From positions 11,904 through 75,903 of IMG/VR virus record IMGVR_UViG_3300046642_000603: a DNA stretch of 64,000 nucleotides; one strand, 5' to 3'. Below are positions 1,088 to 56,697 of this stretch, piece by piece. Numbering within the stretch: the stretch's first letter is position 1; every line of letters begins with the position of its first letter. The notes under the pieces were generated by a model. That model did not search any database. It saw only the letters and a program-made list of their open reading frames with translations, and was not told where the DNA came from. This DNA comes from a virus. Taxonomy: Duplodnaviria > Caudoviricetes. The translations under genes were made by a program, and so were the position numbers.

Positions 1088-1380
1088 AGGCACCCGAGGG
1101 CTACGAGCACCTGGGTGAGGACTTCTGGGCCCGCGTCGAGCCGGACCCGGACACCGACTGCCTCATCTTCCAGTCCACCGCGACGCGGCCGTACTACCAG
1201 GGCAAGACTCTGCTGTCCTTCCTGACCGGCGGCGACGGCCGACAGAAGCACCGGGCGTGCAGGCGCCGGATGTGCGCCAACCCGGACCACATCCAGGACG
1301 GGCACTTCGACATGGGGACGCCGTACGCCCGGCGCCCCCGGTCGAGTTCGCAGTTCGCCCGTCAGTACTCGCAGTGCTGA
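1084..1380 (+). CDS. HNH-like small protein, possibly degenerate
   Basis: FWARVE..DCLIF and HRACRRRMCANPDHI resemble phage HNH nucleases. Confidence 0.55.
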   Translation: MKAPEGYEHLGEDFWARVEPDPDTDCLIFQSTATRPYYQGKTLLSFLTGGDGRQKHRACRRRMCANPDHIQDGHFDMGTPYARRPRSSSQFARQYSQC

Positions 1381-3688: not shown

Positions 3689-3784
3689 GAAACACGTAAT
3701 CTCGAATGGACAATCTCGAAGACGTAATGTAGAGTCGGACCTGCTCAACCGACCTACTACTCCGTAGAAAGAGAGCCCCGCTCT

Positions 3785-14367: not shown

Positions 14368-14789
14368 GGACCGTACGCCGCAAGGTGACACGCATGGAGC
14401 AGCCCCGGCCGCCGTGGGAGTGGCGACCCTCCTTCCGGGCCGGGGCGCCCCGCACGTGCCTGTCCAACCACCGTGACCCGGTCTTCCTGCGGCAGGGGGA
14501 GCACGTCTTCAGGGTGGGGCAGTTCGACTGGCTGCTGCGGCTGTACCAGCACGTGGGGGTCTCGGAGCAGTCCGTCCGGTGGGAGGGCTATGTCCTCTAC
14601 GACCTGGATTACGAGATTCCCCTAATCAGGTTGTCAACGGATTGGCTTGAGTACGTTGACAACCGTCGGGAGATGGTGTTTCGTATCTCCAAGAAGGAAG
14701 CACTCGCCGCCGGGGGAGAGGTTGAGACCCCCGACGGACCCCGCTTCGCAGTACCACTCAGCGCTTACTCGTCCTACGAAGGGGACTGA
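14364..14789 (+). CDS. hypothetical protein
   Basis: GTGA-coupled ORF. Confidence 0.6.
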   Translation: MRTVRRKVTRMEQPRPPWEWRPSFRAGAPRTCLSNHRDPVFLRQGEHVFRVGQFDWLLRLYQHVGVSEQSVRWEGYVLYDLDYEIPLIRLSTDWLEYVDNRREMVFRISKKEALAAGGEVETPDGPRFAVPLSAYSSYEGD

Positions 14790-14796
14790 CCACCAC

Positions 14797-15459
14797 ATGA
14801 CCGTCATCGCGTACCCGAAGTTCCGCCCGATCCCGCGCCTGCACCGCCGCATCGTGATCACCGAGAAGATCCACGGCTCGAACGGCTTGATCGAGGTCAC
14901 CAAGGTCGACGACTTCAACGACCCCGAGGGAGTCGGCGTCGTCGTCATCCACAACGGCGAGCACTACGTCCTCCGGGCGGGCAGCCGCAACCGATGGCTC
15001 ACCCCCGACGACGACAATTTCGGCTTCGCCCGCTTCGTCTGGGACAACGCCCAGTCCCTGGTCAACCTCGGCGAGGGCAAGCACTACGGCGAGTGGTTCG
15101 GCAAGGGCATCAACGCCGGATACGGCCTCGACGAGAAGCGCTTCGCCCTCTTCAACGTCGCCAAGTGGTACGACCCGCGCGACCCCGAGATCACCGAGAA
15201 GTTCCTCCAGACCTTCCCCAAGGCGCAGCCCGCGCCGGAAGCGGTCACCGTCGTCCCGGTCATCTCCGTCATCGACGGCAAGCACCTGAACTACGCGGTC
15301 GAAGAGGCGCTTAATACCCTGGAGTCCGAGGGCTCCTTCATCTCCCCCGGCTTCCGGGACCCCGAGGGCGTCGTCGTCTTCCACGACGCGGCCGGGACCT
15401 ACTTCAAGGCCACCCTCAAGAACGACGAGCAGCCCAAGTCCAAGGTGGCTGCCAAGTGA
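14797..15459 (+). CDS. RNA ligase (Rnl2-like adenylyltransferase domain)
   Basis: TEKIHGSN motif I; YGEWFG; FALFNV; PEGVVV; YFK. Confidence 0.85.
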   Translation: MTVIAYPKFRPIPRLHRRIVITEKIHGSNGLIEVTKVDDFNDPEGVGVVVIHNGEHYVLRAGSRNRWLTPDDDNFGFARFVWDNAQSLVNLGEGKHYGEWFGKGINAGYGLDEKRFALFNVAKWYDPRDPEITEKFLQTFPKAQPAPEAVTVVPVISVIDGKHLNYAVEEALNTLESEGSFISPGFRDPEGVVVFHDAAGTYFKATLKNDEQPKSKVAAK

Positions 15460-22282: not shown

Positions 22283-22530
22283 TGGCTTACGCCCCCTCGC
22301 GTTCGATGAACGCTGAACTAAACGAGGGCGCCACCGACGGGCGATACAAGAAGGTCGTCAGGGACAGGGGCGGCCTCGGCGTCACGCACAGCGAGACCGC
22401 GCACGTTCGCGGAGACCTCAACGACGTCTGGTACGGCATCCACGAGAAGCCGGAGAAGGTCCGGCCCGACGGCCGTGCCGTCCGTACCCCCAACTTCATT
22501 CCGACCCCACCCGCGCAGGCAGGATTCTGA
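22282..22530 (+). CDS. hypothetical protein
   Basis: coupled ORF. Confidence 0.6.
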   Translation: MAYAPSRSMNAELNEGATDGRYKKVVRDRGGLGVTHSETAHVRGDLNDVWYGIHEKPEKVRPDGRAVRTPNFIPTPPAQAGF

Positions 22531-22531
22531 C

Positions 22532-23512
22532 GTGTCCCTCCACGGAGTCGACCTCTCCAACAACAACGACGCGGCGCACATCGCGTCGGCCATCGCCAGC
22601 AAGAACAACGCCTTCATCATCGCGAAGGCGTCCGAGGGCGAGCACACGGGCGACGCGAAGCACGCGAGCATCGTCAAGGCGGTCCGGGCGGCGAAGAAGC
22701 CCCTGGGCCACTACCACTTCGCCCACCCGACCCAGGACGCGGTGACCGAGGCCAAGCACTTCCTGTCCGCCGCTGGCGCGCAGGCCGGTGAGGTCCTGGT
22801 GCTCGACCTGGAAGCCTCCGAGGGCTCCTGGAGCCAGCGGCTGCACTACGCCCTGGCGTGGCTGAAGTACGTGAAGGCGCAGACGAAGGCGTCTCCGCTG
22901 CTGTACACGTACACCTCGTACCTCACCGGCCTGCTCGGTGTGGCCACGGAGGCGCAGAAGACCGAACTGCGGTCCTACCCGCTGTGGGTGGCCGACCCGA
23001 ACAACCCGGCCGGGCACCCGCTGACGGCGGGCTGGGCGACGTGGACCCTGCACCAGTACGGCATCGTCGGCGGCCTGGACCAGAACCTGCTGAACGGCGA
23101 CCTTAATACCTGGAAGGCCCTGGCCATCCCGGCCAAGGCTGTCGTCAAGCCGACTCCGGCCCCCGCTCCGGCGCCCAAGCCGACCCCCGCTCCCGCTCCT
23201 GCTCCAACCCCTGCGAAGGCGTACACGATGGTGATCTTCGGCGAGAACATCGACTCCATGACCGCTGCGGCGGCCACCGATGCGTTCCAGCCCAAGGGCG
23301 CTGTCGCCACCGGCCGTCTGGACGTGGCCAAGGCCGCTCTGGCTGCCGGTGACGTCGTCGTCGCGGTCGGCGGTCCGGCCAACACCGCGCTGGGCTACGC
23401 GCACGCCAAGTCCGGCACGGTGGCCGTCTCCGGCAAGAAGGTATCCGTCCTCGGTGCCACGGCCGGTGACTCCTACGTGCTGCTCGGCCGCTACCTGGCC
23501 ACCGGCAAGTAA
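22532..23512 (+). CDS. endolysin, GH25 muramidase with Pro-Ala linker and C-terminal domain
   Basis: GVDLSNNN; KASEG; GHYHFA; LVLDLE; LWVA; WTLHQY; LDQN; (PA)n linker. Confidence 0.9.
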   Translation: MSLHGVDLSNNNDAAHIASAIASKNNAFIIAKASEGEHTGDAKHASIVKAVRAAKKPLGHYHFAHPTQDAVTEAKHFLSAAGAQAGEVLVLDLEASEGSWSQRLHYALAWLKYVKAQTKASPLLYTYTSYLTGLLGVATEAQKTELRSYPLWVADPNNPAGHPLTAGWATWTLHQYGIVGGLDQNLLNGDLNTWKALAIPAKAVVKPTPAPAPAPKPTPAPAPAPTPAKAYTMVIFGENIDSMTAAAATDAFQPKGAVATGRLDVAKAALAAGDVVVAVGGPANTALGYAHAKSGTVAVSGKKVSVLGATAGDSYVLLGRYLATGK

Positions 23513-28033: not shown

Positions 28034-29572
28034 GTGGAACTGTACTTCGGCGGTTCAGAGATTCCCGGCTGGCGCAAGATGCTGGCCGAGGAAGGCGTCG
28101 AGAACGTCTCCCTCTCCTACATGGGGCTGCGGAGGCGGACCAAGTTCTCCCGGCCGTGGCTCATCGAGGACCACTACCTGGAGGGCCAGAAGGTCTTCCT
28201 CGACTCCGGCGCCTACACCGTGAACAAGGCCGAGGACGACGCGTACTCGGTCGGTGAACTCAAGGAGATCGCCGCTCATTACGAGGCGTTCGTCCAGCAG
28301 AATATCGACTCGCTTAATATGGTGTCCGAGTTCGACGCGGTCGTTCTCGGGCGCGAGTGGATAGAGGCCCGGCGCGAGGATTTCTGGGAGGATCTGCCGG
28401 AGGACAAGTTCCTTCCTATCTGGCACGCGGAATGGGGCGTCGATGAACTCGACCGCCTCGCTCAGCGGTATAAGCGTGTCGGAATTACCCAGACGGATTT
28501 GGACGGACGGAATCTCTCTCCCGTTCTCAACGAGATCACCCGGAAATACGGAACCCTGCTCCACGGCGTCGCAATGACGAAGCCTGCGGAAATGGCTGCC
28601 GTCACCTGGGATTCCGTCGCGTCCACCTCCTGGATTTCCCCCTCGCAGTACGGTGACACCATCGTCTGGACCGGCCGGGAATTGAAGCGGTACCCGAAGA
28701 AATACAAGGACCAGGCGCGTAAGCGGCACCGCACGCTTTTCCAGGAAGCGGGCTTCGACCCGGACAAGATAGAGGACGGGGACAACAACGAGGTCCTGCG
28801 GTTCACCATCTGGTCGTGGCAGCAGTTGGCGGCCTCCATCGAGCAGCACCGTGCGCCCGAGACCGAAGCAGTTACTACTTCCGCTTCAGGGATACTCTCC
28901 GCTTTCTCTCAAACGCAGGGGGGCACAGTTGATACGACGACCGGAGAAGTGGTCAACGCCGTAGCAACTCCCACCCCTCGCCGGGACCGCCCGCGTACCA
29001 ACTTGCCGGTGATCGGCGTGGTGCAGGAGAAGGAGGTCTACACCGACCCCGACGACGGCGTGAACAAGGAGCGCGACGTCCCGCTGGTCACCGTCCGCTC
29101 GCAGTCCATGCGGGTCTGCTCGTCCTGCTTCCTCTCCTCGAAGTGCCCGGCCTTCGACAAGGATGCCAACTGCGCGTACGACATCCCGGTCGAGGTGAAG
29201 AGCAAGCAGCAGATGGGCGCGCTCCAGAATTCGCTCATTGAGATGCAGGCGCAGCGGGTCCTCTTCATGAAGATGGTCGAGGATATGACCGGCGGTTACG
29301 CGGATCCGAACCTCTCCGGTGAGATCGACCGGCTCCAGAAACTGGTGAAGGTGAAGACCGAACTGGAGCAGGACTCCTTCTCCGTGAAACTGGAGGCTAA
29401 GGGGAACGGTGCGCAGGCCGGTATGATCAGCCGTCTGTTCGGAAAAGACGCAGGGCAGCAGATGACCGCCTTCGACAACCCCGTGTCGGCGGACCGGATG
29501 ATCGAGTCCGGCAGCGGATTCATCGACGCGGAAATCGTCGATGTACCAACTCTCTACAACCAGGAAGGTTAG
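28034..29572 (+). CDS. TGT/DpdA-like transglycosylase-fold protein fused to a Cys4 domain
   Basis: VFLDSGAYT; LPIWH; LLHGV; DSVASTSW; C-terminal CSSC...CPAF...C. Confidence 0.65.
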   Translation: MELYFGGSEIPGWRKMLAEEGVENVSLSYMGLRRRTKFSRPWLIEDHYLEGQKVFLDSGAYTVNKAEDDAYSVGELKEIAAHYEAFVQQNIDSLNMVSEFDAVVLGREWIEARREDFWEDLPEDKFLPIWHAEWGVDELDRLAQRYKRVGITQTDLDGRNLSPVLNEITRKYGTLLHGVAMTKPAEMAAVTWDSVASTSWISPSQYGDTIVWTGRELKRYPKKYKDQARKRHRTLFQEAGFDPDKIEDGDNNEVLRFTIWSWQQLAASIEQHRAPETEAVTTSASGILSAFSQTQGGTVDTTTGEVVNAVATPTPRRDRPRTNLPVIGVVQEKEVYTDPDDGVNKERDVPLVTVRSQSMRVCSSCFLSSKCPAFDKDANCAYDIPVEVKSKQQMGALQNSLIEMQAQRVLFMKMVEDMTGGYADPNLSGEIDRLQKLVKVKTELEQDSFSVKLEAKGNGAQAGMISRLFGKDAGQQMTAFDNPVSADRMIESGSGFIDAEIVDVPTLYNQEG

Positions 29573-46667: not shown

Positions 46668-46729
46668 CTGATCCTCCGGTCCGGTCCGTCGGCGGATAGG
46701 GGTCGACGGGCCGGGCCGGGTCAGGTACA

Positions 46730-50397: not shown

Positions 50398-50628
50398 ATG
50401 ACCGCGAAGCAGGACGACGACCGCCCCCTCATGGGACTCGGTCATCTGGTGATCCCCAACGTCAGCGCCGCGAAGGACTGGCTGGAGCGCCAGGGCAAGA
50501 AGCGCGAGGAAGCCGTCGAGATCGTCGTCCTTGAGACCAAGAAGTGGTTCGCCATCGACCACCTCCCCGACGAGTTCTACGAGACCTTCGCCAAGCGCGT
50601 GGTCGCCGCACTCGACCAGCGTCTCTGA
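50398..50628 (+). CDS. hypothetical protein
   Basis: ORF. Confidence 0.6.
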   Translation: MTAKQDDDRPLMGLGHLVIPNVSAAKDWLERQGKKREEAVEIVVLETKKWFAIDHLPDEFYETFAKRVVAALDQRL

Positions 50629-50650
50629 CCCACCACACCCCGGAGGACAC

Positions 50651-51757
50651 ATGACCAACCTCATGAGCATCATGTCCCAGAGCCTGCTCAAGGAAATGCT
50701 CGACAAGGGCTACGTCCGCAGGCAGAACCACCCCGACGCGTCGCTGGCCATCCTCAACTACACGAACAAGGCCCAGTACGAGGGCATGTGGAACGACGTC
50801 ACGAAGAAGACGCGCGGCCTGATCGTCGACAGCGTCACCAACGAGGTCATCTCCCGCCCGTTCGAGAAGTTCTTCAACTGGGACCAGGTACCCGAACTGC
50901 ACTCCACGCTCCTGGCGCAGCCGGTCGAGGGATACGTGAAGTGGGACGGCTCTCTGGGCGTCGGCTACACGCTTAATACCGGGGAGTTCCGCATCGCCAC
51001 GCGGGGCTCCTTCACCAGCCCCCAGGCCCTGCACGCCACCGCGCTCGTGCAGGAGCGGTACCCCGAGTTCGAGCCCATCCTCGGCCTGACGTACCTCTTC
51101 GAGATCGTCTTCCCGGCCAACCGCATCGTCGTGGACTACCAGAGCCTGGACGACCTGGTGCTCCTCGCCGTCATCGACACCGCGACCGGCAAGACGCTCC
51201 CCTTCGGCACCTACGACTGGCCCGGCCTGGTCAATGAGCCGGTCGGCTTCAAGACGATGCCCGACGTCCTGGACTACATGCGCCACGTGCAGGAGAAGAA
51301 CCTGGAGGGCTTCGTCGTCCGCTTCCCCTGGAGCGACACCCGGGTGAAGTTCAAGTACGACGAGTACGTCCGCCTGCACCGCATCCTGACGAACGTCTCC
51401 ACCCTCTCCGTGTGGGACGCGCTGGCCAACGGGCAGGGCATCGACTCCTGGATCGACCACGTGCCGGACGAGTTCTACACCTGGGTCCACCAGCAGGTGT
51501 ACCGCCTGGAGGGTGACTTCGCCCGCGAGAAGGCCCAGATCATGGACGACTACGCCTGGATCCTCAAGCGGTTGCGGCGGCCGGAGACGGACGCACAGAA
51601 GCGCCGCAAGGAGTTCGCGCTGCTCGCCCAGGAGACGCCGTACCCGGGTCTGCTGTTCCGCATCTACGGCGGCAAGGACATCACGGCCGACGTCTGGAAG
51701 CGGGTCCGGCCGACGTACGAGAAGCCGTTCCAGACGCTCTCGGAGGATGCGGCCTGA
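50651..51757 (+). CDS. T4 Rnl1-family RNA ligase
   Basis: RGLI; RPFEKFFN; KWDGSLG; ATRGSF; YLFEIV; EGFVV; VKFK. Confidence 0.92.
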   Translation: MTNLMSIMSQSLLKEMLDKGYVRRQNHPDASLAILNYTNKAQYEGMWNDVTKKTRGLIVDSVTNEVISRPFEKFFNWDQVPELHSTLLAQPVEGYVKWDGSLGVGYTLNTGEFRIATRGSFTSPQALHATALVQERYPEFEPILGLTYLFEIVFPANRIVVDYQSLDDLVLLAVIDTATGKTLPFGTYDWPGLVNEPVGFKTMPDVLDYMRHVQEKNLEGFVVRFPWSDTRVKFKYDEYVRLHRILTNVSTLSVWDALANGQGIDSWIDHVPDEFYTWVHQQVYRLEGDFAREKAQIMDDYAWILKRLRRPETDAQKRRKEFALLAQETPYPGLLFRIYGGKDITADVWKRVRPTYEKPFQTLSEDAA

Positions 51758-52062
51758 TGGAGCCCGACGACCTCGGCGGCTGGTTCGAGGCGGCGGAACT
51801 GGTGGGCGGGGAACGACTCCTCGCCCACCCCCGCAAGGACTGCATCGGCCGCCACTGCTGCGTACACAATCCCTCCGATCACCACATGGCCGACTGGCCC
51901 CAGCACTTCCGCATGGACCGCGCCCTGATGGAGCGGATGTGCTCCCACGGCGTCGGTCACCCCGACCCGGACGACCTCGCCTACAAGCGGATGTTGCAGG
52001 GCGAGGACTACAACCCCTACGAGGGCCTGCACGGCTGCGACGGGTGCTGCCGATGCCCGTGA
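51757..52062 (+). CDS. hypothetical Cys/His-rich protein
   Basis: CCVHNPSDHHM; CSHGVGHPDPD; HGCDGCC. Confidence 0.7.
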   Translation: MEPDDLGGWFEAAELVGGERLLAHPRKDCIGRHCCVHNPSDHHMADWPQHFRMDRALMERMCSHGVGHPDPDDLAYKRMLQGEDYNPYEGLHGCDGCCRCP

Positions 52063-52103
52063 AGTGCCAGTGCTGCGGACCGAAGAAGACGAAGGAGAAG
52101 CCT

Positions 52104-52973
52104 GTGACGACGCTGACCATGACCAAGGGCCTGCCGGGCTCCGGCAAGACGACGTGGGCCCGGGAGCAGGTCCTCAAGGCCATCCCCGGCTCCGTCGTGA
52201 TCGTGTGCAAGGACGACCTGCGGGCGATGCTGCACGCCGACCGCTGGCACGGCAAGAACGAGCGGCAGGTCGTCAAGGCCCGCGACGCGCTCGTGGAGAT
52301 GTTCCTGCTCCAGGGCGTCAGCGTGATCGTCGCCGACACCAATCTCAACCCGTTCCACGAGGAGCGCCTGGAGCGGCTGGCGGAAAGCCGGGGAGCGAGG
52401 TTCTTCGTCAAGGACTTCACCGACGTGACGCTTAATACCTGCGTCCGCCGCGACCTGAAGCGGGAGAAGAGCGTCGGCGAGAAGGTCATCAGGGACATGT
52501 ACGAGAAGTACCTGGCCCCGAAGCCTGCCGACCCTCCGGAGTACATAGAGGGCCGCCCGCACGCGGTCCTGGTGGACCTGGACGGCACGCTGGCCCTGAT
52601 GGCCGACCGCAGCCCGTTCGACTGGGACCGGGTGGACGAGGACGCGGCGCACCAGGACGTCGTCGACCTGGTGAACACCCTGCGGGATGCGGGCGCCGAG
52701 ATCATCTTCGTCTCCGGCCGCGACGCGAGGGCCTACAAGCGGACTCGGTCCTGGCTGGTGCAGCACGTTGGCGACTGGACGCCCCTGGCGCCGCTGCTGA
52801 TGCGCGCCGAGTTCGACATGCGCAAGGACTCGATCGTCAAGGAGGAGATCTACCGGCAGGAGATCCTGGGCCGCTACAACGTGTGGATGGTCCTGGACGA
52901 CCGTGACCAGGTGGTCGAGATGTGGCGCAATCTCGGCTTGCGCGTCCTCCAAGTGGCCCCCGGCGCCTTCTAG
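52104..52973 (+). CDS. polynucleotide kinase / 3'-phosphatase (T4 PseT-like)
   Basis: GLPGSGKTTW; DDLR; VADTNL; VDLDGTLA HAD motif; SGRD; LDDRDQVV. Confidence 0.93.
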   Translation: MTTLTMTKGLPGSGKTTWAREQVLKAIPGSVVIVCKDDLRAMLHADRWHGKNERQVVKARDALVEMFLLQGVSVIVADTNLNPFHEERLERLAESRGARFFVKDFTDVTLNTCVRRDLKREKSVGEKVIRDMYEKYLAPKPADPPEYIEGRPHAVLVDLDGTLALMADRSPFDWDRVDEDAAHQDVVDLVNTLRDAGAEIIFVSGRDARAYKRTRSWLVQHVGDWTPLAPLLMRAEFDMRKDSIVKEEIYRQEILGRYNVWMVLDDRDQVVEMWRNLGLRVLQVAPGAF

Positions 52974-54422: not shown

Positions 54423-54797
54423 ATGGGTGAGCGCGTCAGCGTTGACAAGTTCTGCGATTTCAAGGTGAAGCACGGCCGCAAGACCGAGACATGCGGCCAG
54501 GACGTACCCGGTAACGAGGCCACGGCCATCACCATCGGTACGACGAGGTACTTCATGGATCTATGCCTGGACCATCAGCAGCTCATGGTCGGTGCCCTGG
54601 AGCCCTTCACCTCCGTCGCCCACAACACCGAGAAGCGCGTCGGCACGCAGGTGCTGAAGGCCATCAAGGGCCGGGGCGGCCAGACCTTCACCGCTGCGGA
54701 CGTGCGCCTGTGGCTGAAGGAGCAGGGCCGGGAGATCGCCCACACCGGGCGGATCCCCACGGACCTCATCCGCGAGTTTGAGGCCGCGCACAAGTAG
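54423..54797 (+). CDS. lsr2: Lsr2-family nucleoid-associated protein
   Basis: YFMDLC; VRLWLKEQG.EI..TGRIP..LIREFEAAH. Confidence 0.85.
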   Translation: MGERVSVDKFCDFKVKHGRKTETCGQDVPGNEATAITIGTTRYFMDLCLDHQQLMVGALEPFTSVAHNTEKRVGTQVLKAIKGRGGQTFTAADVRLWLKEQGREIAHTGRIPTDLIREFEAAHK

Positions 54798-55209
54798 AGC
54801 TGACACCTGCCTTGGCAAGGGTCGGAGGGACAACGGCGTCCCCCCGGCCCTTTTTGCTGCCCTGGACAGTGTCCTACCCCCCGCCTCGCGCGAGGGAAAC
54901 GGGGCAGTGGCCTCGGATTACAAACACGTAATCATGATCCTGTAAAAAGGATGCATGAACACGATGAGCGAGCGACGGCCGGGCAAGGGGAGCAACCTCC
55001 CCTTCGCCAGCATGCCCGCGCCCATCACGGCCTTGACGGCGTTCTGCCTCGGCCGCTTCCCGTTCCCCGCCCGCTAGGGCAGCCCCTTGGCCCGCTACCC
55101 CAAGCGAGGCGTAAGACCCGGCGGGGAACTGTCTCTCCATGGCAAGCTAGTTGCTAAATGGGGTTGACAAGGCCCAACCTTGATAACGTAATGTGTAGCC
55201 CATCAACCT

Positions 55210-55283
55210 CTGGACGTAGCGCAGCCCGGTAGCGCGCCTGCTTTGGATGCAGGGGGTCGCAGGTTCGAATCCTGCCGTCCAGA
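55210..55283 (+). tRNA. tRNA-Pro(TGG)
   Basis: cloverleaf; CCTGC-TTTGGAT-GCAGG anticodon arm; GGTTCGAATCC. Confidence 0.93.
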
Positions 55284-55289
55284 CTTCAC

Positions 55290-55362
55290 GGCCCTTTGGC
55301 AGAGACAGTTAATGCGCCCGCCTGAAAAGCGGGAGATCTTGGTGCGATTCCAAGGGGGGCCA
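55290..55362 (+). tRNA. tRNA-Phe(GAA), atypical T-loop
   Basis: CCCGC-CTGAAAA-GCGGG; T-arm CTTGG-TGCGATT-CCAAG. Confidence 0.8.
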
Positions 55363-55373
55363 CTTTGTCCAGA

Positions 55374-55520
55374 CGCCGAGCCCTGTTCCTGGACAAAAAC
55401 TGCAATCAACCCTGAACAGGGGCGGGAGACCGAAACGCAGTACTGGGGCGAATCCGCAGAACCACGTGTGGTAGGGAACAGCACTTATCCCGAGCCCGTC
55501 ACCTAATTTCGTAGGCGTGC
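55374..55520 (+). ncRNA. ydaO/yuaA-class (cyclic di-AMP) riboswitch
   Basis: CGCCGAG.CCTG...GGGGCGAATC...GTAGGG...CCCGAGCCCGTCACCTAA..CGTAGGCG directly upstream of a cell-wall hydrolase gene. Confidence 0.8.
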
Positions 55521-55530
55521 GGAGTGCATC

Positions 55531-56163
55531 ATGAATAAGAGGATCGCTGGAATCGCACTTGCGGGCGCACTGGCCATTACGCCGATAGCGGTTACCGCCG
55601 CAGAGGCCGCAGCCAGTTACGTGACCGTCAAAAGCGGAGACACACTGAGTGGGATCGCATCAGCCCACAAGACGACGTATCAGCACCTCGCGTCCATCAA
55701 CCACATATCCAACCCCAACCGGATTTACCCCGGCGAGAGAATCCTTCTGGCCGCATCGTCCACGCCCGCACCGGCCAAGCCCGCATCCACGACCGGCAGC
55801 TCGACCTCGTCGGGCACGAAGATCGTCAACCAGGCCGCCAAGTACATCGGTACGCGGTACGTCTGGGGCGGCACCTCGCCGTCGGCTGGCTTCGACTGCT
55901 CCGGCCTGACCTACTACACCTTCAAGAAGCTGGGGAAGAGCATTCCCCGCGTCGCGAGCGACCAGCACCGCGCGGCGGCGAAGGTCTCGAAGCCCCAGAA
56001 GGGCGACCTGGTCTTCGTGCACGACTCCAGCGGTCACGTCTACCACGTGGCCATCTACGTCAATTCCACGACGTGGCTGGAGGCGGAGCGCCCGGGTAAG
56101 GGCGTGAACTACTACAAGCCGTGGTCGAAGTCGGTTTACTACGGCCGCTACACGGTGAAGTAG
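55531..56163 (+). CDS. secreted LysM + NlpC/P60 peptidoglycan endopeptidase
   Basis: signal peptide; VKSGDTLSGIA...NPNRIYPGE LysM; YVWGG...FDCSGL...HVAIY. Confidence 0.95.
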   Translation: MNKRIAGIALAGALAITPIAVTAAEAAASYVTVKSGDTLSGIASAHKTTYQHLASINHISNPNRIYPGERILLAASSTPAPAKPASTTGSSTSSGTKIVNQAAKYIGTRYVWGGTSPSAGFDCSGLTYYTFKKLGKSIPRVASDQHRAAAKVSKPQKGDLVFVHDSSGHVYHVAIYVNSTTWLEAERPGKGVNYYKPWSKSVYYGRYTVK

Positions 56164-56180
56164 GATTCACCAGTAAGAAA

Positions 56181-56210
56181 GGCCGGAGGGAACCTATCTT
56201 CCCTCCGGCC
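56181..56210 (+). terminator. hairpin after the hydrolase gene
   Basis: GGCCGGAGGGAA..TTCCCTCCGGCC. Confidence 0.6.
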
Positions 56211-56213
56211 CAC

Positions 56214-56296
56214 GGCCGAGTGGTGAAATGGCAGCCACGCCGTCCTCAAAAGACGGTGCCTGAAAGGGCGTGCGGGTTCGAGTCCCGCCTTGGCTA
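56214..56296 (+). tRNA. tRNA-Leu(CAA)
   Basis: CCGTC-CTCAAAA-GACGG; long variable arm; GGTTCGAGTCC. Confidence 0.9.
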
Positions 56297-56301
56297 CGCA
56301 A

Positions 56302-56374
56302 TCCCTCATAGCTCAATTGGCAGAGCAGCGCACTGTTAATGCGCGGGTTCCTGGTTCGAGTCCAGGTGAGGGAG
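56302..56374 (+). tRNA. tRNA-Asn(GTT)
   Basis: GCGCA-CTGTTAA-TGCGC; GGTTCGAGTCC. Confidence 0.93.
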
Positions 56375-56415
56375 CCCTGTAAGCCCCGGTAACCTAATTG
56401 GTTGCCGGGGCTCAG

Positions 56416-56697
56416 TCATTCTCCGATGCCGGTCACGACGAACGTGAGCAGTGCCACAACCGCAGATACCCCCAGCAGGGACGGGTAGCGGGTGGACAGT
56501 AGCCCGAGGAGAGCCGTTATACCCCACGCCGCGTTCTTCAGCGTCCAGACAGTGACCTCGTCCGGCTCCTCCTCGGCGGCCGGTGGGGGAGCGTCGGAGC
56601 CCTGGTGGGCGTCCAGGTGCCGCTGCTTGTCGACAGCCATGTCCACCTCCGTCTCGGACACACCCCAGCCGTTGCAGTCATCGCAGTACCAGAACAT
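56416..56697 (-). CDS. small membrane protein with N-terminal Zn finger
   Basis: CDDC...H...H; two C-terminal TM segments. Confidence 0.55.
   Translation of the reverse strand: MFWYCDDCNGWGVSETEVDMAVDKQRHLDAHQGSDAPPPAAEEEPDEVTVWTLKNAAWGITALLGLLSTRYPSLLGVSAVVALLTFVVTGIGE

Follow-up and report, generated by a model that had tools for sequence, protein, structure and literature searches.

A cyclic di-AMP riboswitch before a cell-wall hydrolase gene in a temperate lineage of Streptomyces phages, most likely a translational OFF switch

We analysed a window of 64,000 nucleotides (nt) from a virus of the Caudoviricetes (bases 11904-75903 of the 75,903-base IMG/VR record IMGVR_UViG_3300046642_000603, estimated to be 77% complete) and identified in it a riboswitch aptamer of the ydaO class, which binds cyclic di-AMP (c-di-AMP), directly before the gene of a LysM-NlpC/P60 cell-wall hydrolase. 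An earlier reading of this stretch, made from its letters without database searches (hereafter the sequence-only reading), had placed such a unit between a tRNA-Phe and a tRNA-Leu gene, and the ARAGORN positions agree with it. We consider that the element is the c-di-AMP riboswitch of a temperate Streptomyces phage of ~100 kb and that its most likely mode of action is that of a translational OFF switch on the hydrolase. The riboswitch class, the type of target gene and the likely mechanism are already known, and what is new is the viral carrier and its context. Should the wider scenario put forward below be true, it would provide the first example of a virus that senses c-di-AMP by means of an RNA, on an mRNA whose ends are cut by tRNA processing. 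Riboswitches are rare in phages, and the parts of the survey of McCown et al. (2017, PMC5473149) that deal with them list only c-di-GMP-I and glutamine examples. The c-di-GMP-I riboswitches of Clostridioides difficile prophages and the glutamine riboswitches of cyanophages resemble the present case as host-type riboswitches carried by phages, and the former also sense a cyclic dinucleotide, but they belong to another class and bind another ligand (PMC5473149). Our search of the full-text literature, with subscription papers and supplements outside its reach, returned host-side or unrelated papers only and no report of a phage-borne c-di-AMP riboswitch.

The aptamer and its hydrolase gene

The Infernal search with the Rfam ydaO-yuaA model, named by the sequence-only reading as a way to check its claim, was carried out by running cmscan with 4227 Rfam families on the whole window. 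Five matches reached the gathering score, namely four tRNAs and one c-di-AMP riboswitch (RF00379), the latter with 57.1 bits (gathering score, 38) and over the full length of the model (Table 1). The match ends on the first base of the ATG of the LysM-NlpC/P60 gene, and the four blocks expected in ydaO order are all present in that order, GGGGCGAATC at 55445, GTAGGG at 55471, CCCGAGCCCGTCACCTAA at 55489 and CGTAGGCG at 55510, followed by the ribosome-binding site (RBS) GGAG at 55521. Two boundaries proposed earlier had to be revised. The leader follows tRNA-Phe without a gap and begins at 55364 instead of 55374; the statement that it ends just before the RBS is right for the last helix (P1), which ends at 55517, 3 nt 5' of the RBS, and wrong for the tail of the model, which covers the RBS. 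Judged by the covariance model, the leader element is a genuine c-di-AMP (ydaO/kimA-class) riboswitch, and it was found where the known regulon would have it, in the leader of a wall hydrolase gene of the type regulated in Actinobacteria.

The NlpC/P60 domain of the encoded protein scored 82.6 bits against a cut-off of 23. Peptidases of this family (C40) use a triad made of a catalytic Cys, a His and a third polar residue, and the corresponding C123, H172 and E184 are invariant in 10/10 homologues. The closest solved structure is Bacillus subtilis LytE (PDB 8i2e, E = 1.7e-23), which likewise combines LysM with a C-terminal NlpC/P60 D,L-endopeptidase domain; LytE has three LysM domains and a His as third catalytic residue, whereas the phage protein has one LysM and carries Glu184 in alignment with that His. 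By eye, the N-terminus MNKRIAGIALAGALAITPIAVTAAEAAAS shows MNKR, a hydrophobic run and AEA/AA, a Sec-signal-like pattern kept in 10/10 homologues, and the protein thus looks like one secreted through a putative Sec signal peptide. LysM is missing in about half of the relatives' proteins (160-165 aa vs 207-217 aa). With secretion judged by eye, the Rfam, Pfam and PHROG matches uphold the earlier description of a phage-borne ydaO-class riboswitch before a secreted LysM-NlpC/P60 hydrolase.

The surroundings of the unit are viral. Among the 32 long open reading frames (ORFs) of the window scanned against PHROGs, many matched phage functions (e.g., primase, helicase, DNA polymerase, ribonucleotide reductase, UvsX-like recombinase and thymidylate synthase). 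Since phage genes flank the unit on both sides (RNA ligase, polynucleotide kinase and an Lsr2-like gene upstream, an exonuclease gene downstream, according to Pfam and PHROGs), the riboswitch unit lies inside the phage genome and not in a host flank.

Table 1. Positions in the window of the riboswitch unit, of its tRNA flanks and of related features
Feature	Position	Strand	Basis or remark
c-di-AMP riboswitch aptamer (RF00379, ydaO/yuaA)	55391-55531	+	E = 1.3e-10; model 1-134 of 134, untruncated
5' leader hairpin, 9-bp stem UUUGUCCAG/CUGGACAAA, 16-nt loop	55364-55397	+	begins 1 nt after tRNA-Phe
Loop segment CCCUGUUC, complementary to aptamer 55414-55421 GAACAGGG	55381-55388	+	possible alternative helix
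Pseudoknot 5' strand GCACUU	55481-55486	+	loop of last hairpin
Pseudoknot 3' strand GAGUGC	55522-55527	+	overlaps Shine-Dalgarno sequence
Shine-Dalgarno sequence GGAG	55521-55524	+	6 nt 5' of ATG
Coding sequence, 210 aa: putative signal peptide, LysM, NlpC/P60	55531-56163	+	Pfam
LysM domain (PF01476), residues 32-72	55624-55746	+	54.5 bits
NlpC/P60 endopeptidase domain (PF00877), residues 107-197	55849-56121	+	Pfam
GC-rich 3' hairpin, no U-tract on + strand	56180-56211	+	between stop codon and tRNA-Leu
Promoter-like site: TTGACA (55164-55169), 19-nt spacer, TAATGT (55189-55194)	55164-55194	+	upstream of tRNA-Pro
tRNA-Pro (TGG)	55210-55284	+	ARAGORN; Rfam tRNA, 68.4 bits
tRNA-Phe (GAA)	55290-55363	+	ARAGORN; Rfam tRNA, 56.4 bits
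tRNA-Leu (CAA)	56214-56297	+	ARAGORN, Rfam
tRNA-Asn (GTT)	56302-56376	+	ARAGORN, Rfam
Endolysin	22475-23509		PHROG match

Leader structure and control of translation

Thirteen distinct leaders were aligned, in which we tested the Rfam helices (taken from the cmscan alignment), the 5' hairpin and the pseudoknot. Standard pairs filled 93.9% of the 528 cells, compared with 34-51% when the partners were slid by 1-3 columns, and the five variable pairs each changed only between G-C and G-U. Five of the seven helices of the Rfam model were 98-100% paired, and the figure was 65% for P1 and 50% for a 2-bp inner helix. The loop of the last hairpin is complementary to the segment that overlaps the Shine-Dalgarno sequence (GCACUU/GAGUGC), and all six pairs of this pseudoknot are invariant in 13/13 leaders.

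A loop-to-3'-end pseudoknot of the c-di-AMP riboswitch has been described at the corresponding position (PMC11963983). In Thermoanaerobacter pseudethanolicus, this 6-bp pseudoknot hides the Shine-Dalgarno sequence, c-di-AMP gives ~6-fold repression, and repression is lost when the pseudoknot or the Shine-Dalgarno sequence is mutated (PMC11963983); the phage leader shares the 6-bp pseudoknot on the Shine-Dalgarno sequence with this element of a Firmicute chromosome, the two being likened by arrangement and not position by position. A second precedent is the riboswitch RSnlpC of Corynebacterium glutamicum nlpC (cg2402), for which the available text of Reich et al. (2023, PMC9960051) gives translational repression by c-di-AMP and no terminator. 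RSnlpC belongs to the same class, precedes an NlpC/P60 wall peptidase gene in an actinobacterium and has a proposed pseudoknot onto the RBS GGAG; unlike the phage element, it is chromosomal, is not placed between tRNA genes in that text and uses the anti-Shine-Dalgarno sequence CUCC, whereas the phage loop GCACUU pairs with the 3' half of the Shine-Dalgarno sequence plus UGC. We also compared the loops and tails of 33 Streptomyces host units (7 genomes) and of the window, which gave 31 distinct combinations (30 from hosts; L075, with no core match, was excluded). The Shine-Dalgarno region takes part in the longest loop-tail stem in 25/31 combinations, and this stem comes in several flavours (CCUUCC/GGAAGG, UCUCC/GGAGA and CUCAC/GUGAG, next to GCACUU/GAGUGC in the phage).

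In the mechanism that we propose, the bound c-di-AMP would close the aptamer and the pseudoknot would mask GGAG, so that the LysM-NlpC/P60 endopeptidase would not be made, while at low c-di-AMP the Shine-Dalgarno sequence would be free and the endopeptidase made and exported. A wall hydrolase of the phage would in this way be placed under a signal shared with the 5-9 riboswitch-gated wall hydrolase genes of the host.

Several points weigh against this mechanism. Binding of c-di-AMP and switching by the phage aptamer are expected from homology with the class, and P1 is weak, one of its pairs being never formed (13/13 leaders) and a second one unpaired in 5/13, while half of the 2-bp inner helix is unpaired. 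No compensatory double change was seen among the 41 pairs of the Rfam helices within the phage family, and the structural support thus comes from the family model rather than from covariation seen here. As the pseudoknot is invariant in the phages, the covariation argument comes from the host-unit comparison, in which the longest stem lies elsewhere in 6/31 combinations and the control is weak (cognate mean of 6.1 bp vs 4.9 bp for non-cognate partners) because a purine-rich Shine-Dalgarno tail can pair with many loops that are rich in pyrimidines. In addition, the minimum-free-energy fold of the leader recovered the 5' hairpin and missed the aptamer, being no better than shuffles (z = 0.49); note that such folding is uninformative for a pseudoknotted, ligand-stabilised RNA.

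The main alternative, which we consider unlikely, is that the aptamer acts chiefly at the RNA level, i.e., through ligand-dependent decay or through premature termination with or without Rho. Bacterial mRNA commonly becomes unstable when its translation is blocked, which counts for an effect of this kind. The rpfA transcript of Streptomyces coelicolor was also reported to rise when its riboswitch was removed, with no canonical terminator as cited in the available text of PMC9960051, and this observation speaks against purely translational control. However, P1 ends only 13 nt before the ATG, a stretch that leaves no room for a terminator and holds no terminator-like site on the plus strand, the conserved complementarity falls exactly on the Shine-Dalgarno sequence, and the T. 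pseudethanolicus and C. glutamicum elements are two experimental precedents for translational repression (PMC11963983, PMC9960051).

Conservation among phages, host and lifestyle

IMG/VR was surveyed by two exact-pattern scans and a protein-based scan, and the cultured phages through five whole genomes. The pattern scan with the aptamer core gave 20 loci, 19 of which carry RF00379 above the cut-off (54.8-71.9 bits), every one flanked by tRNAs and followed by a complete homologous hydrolase ORF (19/19); the twentieth (L016) had no RF00379 match. In the protein-based scan, 80 of 122 relatives were kept and 20 of these 80 loci were given to Rfam. Hydrolases at least 54% identical to that of the window occur on 22 contigs, i.e., the 19 pattern contigs plus L085, L088 and L089 (59.6, 62.7 and 49.2 bits, with tRNAs), and among these 80 of 122 relatives the aptamer and the flanking tRNAs accompany the close homologue in 22/22 contigs, with RF00379 scores between 49.2 and 71.9 bits. 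The module-bearing contigs reach 110 kb, and L085 is a 105.7-kb record with an identifier numbered differently from those of metagenome-derived records, which suggests that it comes from an isolate. More distant hydrolase loci had no RF00379 match (0/17 sampled of 58), nor did the 180 nt of sequence upstream of a 55%-identical partial homologue on a 1.7-kb Streptacidiphilus contig (L023). The second pattern scan, made with a general consensus, gave RF00379 in 3/10 loci, two of which look like host flank by eye. The third, a 6.4-kb GC-rich viral contig (L045) outside the phage family of the window, fits neither group; its RF00379 match of 54 bits at 1176-1319 (-) is followed, by eye, only by a 63-aa membrane-like ORF that begins 123 nt further on.

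In 12/12 comparisons with the window, conservation is higher in the leader than in the NlpC/P60 coding part, with nucleotide identities of 84-99% for the leader vs 69-94% for the NlpC/P60 domain and whole-protein identities down to 56%, which argues for selection on the RNA itself. The riboswitch is retained throughout this lineage of temperate Streptomyces phages of ~100 kb, under a constraint stronger than that on its gene. These data bear on a second alternative, according to which the aptamer is a relic or has shifted its specificity and the leader serves only mRNA stability or constitutive expression. The score of 57 bits, compared with up to 99 bits for the best host copies, the weak P1 and the sequence GGGAGA where the model consensus is GGGGGA all speak for it, but the match spans the whole model and has every conserved block, the G-to-A change is offset by a C-to-U change on the partner strand of the long helix (an A-U pair in 13/13 leaders), and conservation of the leader above the coding part, next to hydrolases down to 56-57% identical, would be unexpected of a relic; we regard it as quite improbable.

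Still less probable is that the leader serves mainly as a sponge for host c-di-AMP, made in bulk with the tRNAs, and that the hydrolase is secondary. This riboswitch class binds two ligands per RNA (PMC11963983) and the leader sits with tRNA genes that are presumably strongly transcribed; however, across the 22 contigs and the prophage described below the aptamer is always coupled to the hydrolase, with the pseudoknot on the Shine-Dalgarno sequence, and no stand-alone copy was seen. Moreover, the whole record gave no match to the c-di-AMP cyclase domain (PF02457) and no other pointer to manipulation of the messenger.

A search of genome contigs identified in Streptomyces sp. NPDC002088 (G001) a full-length homologous protein, 78% identical, whose module includes an aptamer (RF00379, 59.8 bits) and five flanking tRNAs. 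Its contig 18 is syntenic with the window at 71-88% nucleotide identity, with a DNA polymerase 89% identical at the amino acid level. The left edge of the element (L078, G001:C18:66000-84000) holds, in order, the N-part of a monooxygenase gene, a large serine recombinase, a tyrosine integrase and a terminase, and the luciferase-like monooxygenase is split between this edge (profile positions 13-186 of 314) and the right one (192-244; L079, G001:C18:180000-199999), about 106 kb apart, with ordinary host genes outside both ends. The split target gene, the recombinases and the host genes outside identify an integrated prophage; the lineage is thus temperate and infects Streptomyces. The sequence-only reading had not foreseen this, and the unit may act in lysogens and not just during lytic growth. 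Note that the temperate part of our interpretation has its own counterweights, since temperate growth is shown for the NPDC002088 relative only and is attributed to the phage of the window through its relatives, and since no integrase was found in the window's own 75.9-kb record, which lacks about 23% of the genome. Finally, the idea that the unit is host DNA misbinned as viral is practically negligible. In its favour, two of the three other RF00379 matches in IMG/VR lie near contig ends of isolate-derived records and stand, by eye, before genes of host type, one a membrane permease-like and the other a LysM/M23-like ORF. Against it, the present unit has phage genes on both sides, the same arrangement recurs within 22 viral contigs measuring up to 110 kb, in NPDC002088 the unit is inside the prophage at about 11 kb from its right boundary, and the gene was found in 1/401 Streptomyces genomes.

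On the host side, each of 7/7 Streptomyces genomes has 5-9 copies of RF00379, and eight of the nine copies in NPDC002088 precede M23-, Rpf-, SLT- and NlpC/P60-type secreted hydrolases (by eye from translations), in line with the earlier statement that ydaO riboswitches of Streptomyces stand before wall hydrolases. S. coelicolor rpfA and other riboswitch-gated wall hydrolases of the same host genus follow the same logic of an aptamer before a secreted muralytic enzyme (PMC9960051, citing St-Onge et al. 2015). The host units differ from the phage unit by a longer aptamer (157-174 nt for the eight host copies of NPDC002088 vs 141 nt) and, by eye, by a clean CGCC/GGCG P1 where the phage P1 is weak; the GC content of the phage aptamer is below that of the whole window. 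Host-type NlpC/P60 units are also far from the phage protein: among 401 Streptomyces species genomes, a match at E <= 1e-45 was obtained in one, which is the prophage copy of NPDC002088, and 400 have no close homologue, which indicates that the gene is outside the normal Streptomyces repertoire. Close homologues are named from seven Streptomyces assemblies, and identity falls to about 40% beyond the phage-type hydrolase group. The suggestion that the phage captured a complete unit found no support, as worded, in this comparison; no donor for a recent capture was found in the 401 genomes and, with the aptamer shorter and less GC-rich, any capture must be old.

The nearest cultured phages (BRock, Alone3, LuckySocke, pSt2308 and GiJojo) infect Streptomyces, have genomes of 112-116 kb and DNA polymerases 51-52% identical to that of the window. 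RF00379 was found in 0/5 of their whole records, and none was found at E <= 1 upstream of their C40 peptidase genes. BRock gp44 and the pSt2308 C40 family peptidase are small NlpC/P60 proteins like that of the window, 47-50% identical over the catalytic half; unlike here, no tRNAs flank their genes in the annotated regions. Megablast/blastn searches of cultured phages returned only tRNA pieces (4 records, <=5% of the query) and nothing for the aptamer.

Because the lineage is temperate, the role of the unit in lysogens (wall remodelling, germination, growth) is probably at least as great as in lytic growth. We tentatively put forward a wider scenario, possible rather than likely, in which the phage would read host c-di-AMP as a signal of cell state: the lysogen's hydrolase would be derepressed together with those of the host when c-di-AMP falls, the weak P1 would shift the threshold, the lysogen would gain in germination or hyphal remodelling, and in lytic growth a collapse of c-di-AMP would time an auxiliary attack on the wall. 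The element, predicted to be a compact natural c-di-AMP sensor of 141 nt, offers a test case for a virus plugging into a second-messenger regulon of its host, and Streptomyces sp. NPDC002088 is a named, sequenced lysogen with the module, which makes experiments practical if the strain can be obtained.

tRNA flanks, transcription and neighbouring features

Only 27 nt separate tRNA-Phe from the aptamer, and their bases form part of the 5' hairpin, so that a promoter of its own would not fit before the aptamer. Upstream of tRNA-Pro, the promoter-like site has its TTGACA in 10/10 aligned relatives and a second hexamer TAnnGT in the rows reaching that far, and we take it as a putative promoter. The consensus promoter scan gave 0 sites, having missed this one because its spacer limit was 18 nt against a spacer of 19 nt. 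RNA-library contigs from two studies bridge tRNA-Phe and the aptamer (55306-55462 with 2 mismatches, and 55310-55448) as well as the aptamer and the coding sequence (55419-55555 and 55388-55649). Taken together, the short gap, the conserved promoter-like site and these contigs weakly suggest that the hydrolase unit is co-transcribed with the tRNAs, as had been proposed from the letters. On the other side of the balance, such contigs may come from DNA carried over into the libraries and cannot show transcript ends; positions 55650-55977 are uncovered in all 4 runs, a gap not readable as attenuation.

The unit is bordered by a hairpin on each side. The 5' hairpin folds at -12.6 kcal/mol (z = -3.36; 3/200 shuffles as stable), and every cell of its stem is paired in 13/13 leaders, with one C-G to U-G change; it may protect the 5' end. 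The segment of its loop listed in Table 1 could form an alternative helix with the aptamer. All its cells are paired in the 13 leaders, where a single double change (U-A to C-G) is seen in L003 and a single further change affects one side only; we rejected this helix as a finding and retain it as a hint only, since 90/500 shuffles equal it and the compensatory change is single. The 3' hairpin ends 2 nt short of tRNA-Leu and folds at -25.9 kcal/mol (z = -5.82; 0/200 shuffles as stable), and its reading on the minus strand is the sole terminator-like match of the scan. By eye, most relatives have a hairpin of other sequence at the equivalent place, the case of L003 being ambiguous.

The tRNA-Phe gene has no encoded CCA. 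In B. subtilis, RNase Z cuts CCA-less tRNA precursors after the discriminator. The mRNA could thus be excised by tRNA maturation, with RNase Z acting after tRNA-Phe and RNase P at the 5' end of tRNA-Leu. In the model that we favour, a host-type promoter at 55164-55194 would drive the unit together with tRNA-Pro and tRNA-Phe, and processing of the tRNAs would free an mRNA that starts with the 5' hairpin and ends with the 3' hairpin before tRNA-Leu, which would make it an example of a phage mRNA punctuated by tRNAs.

Several further observations concern the neighbourhood. Just upstream of the promoter-like site lies a conserved GC-rich inverted repeat (UUCCCCGCC ... GGCGGGGAA, 55040-55135), the 3' arm of which (GCGTAAGACCCGGCGGGGAA) is nearly invariant in the relatives; the repeat could be a structured RNA or could terminate the gene upstream. 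The gene of the Lsr2-like nucleoid-associated protein (54423-54797) adjoins the tRNA/riboswitch unit on its upstream side, and a 93-aa ORF at 56416-56697 (-), directly after the tRNA cluster, has a coding-like GC content at third codon positions (GC3) and no Pfam or PHROG match. Genes of an RNA ligase, a polynucleotide kinase/phosphatase and a second RNA ligase (50531-52973 and 14647-15459), noted a few kb upstream of the tRNA cluster, suggest a tRNA-repair counter-defence module. A queuine tRNA-ribosyltransferase-like gene is present at 28034-29572 (phrog_887, E = 2.1e-78); phage genes of this kind often go with 7-deazaguanine modification.

The window has 9 copies of the heptamer ACGTAAT, against 1.05 expected (at 3694, 3722, 23537, 30192, 46729, 49902, 54926, 55186 and 56824), and all 9 copies are outside the ORFs called as coding. 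It is often lengthened to GAAGACGTAAT and forms a near-palindrome, ATTACGTCTTC..GAAGACGTAA, at 46729. Two copies stand just 3' of a TTGACA, one upstream of the tRNA/riboswitch unit and one upstream of the exonuclease gene, and the heptamer looks like a candidate binding site of a phage regulator.

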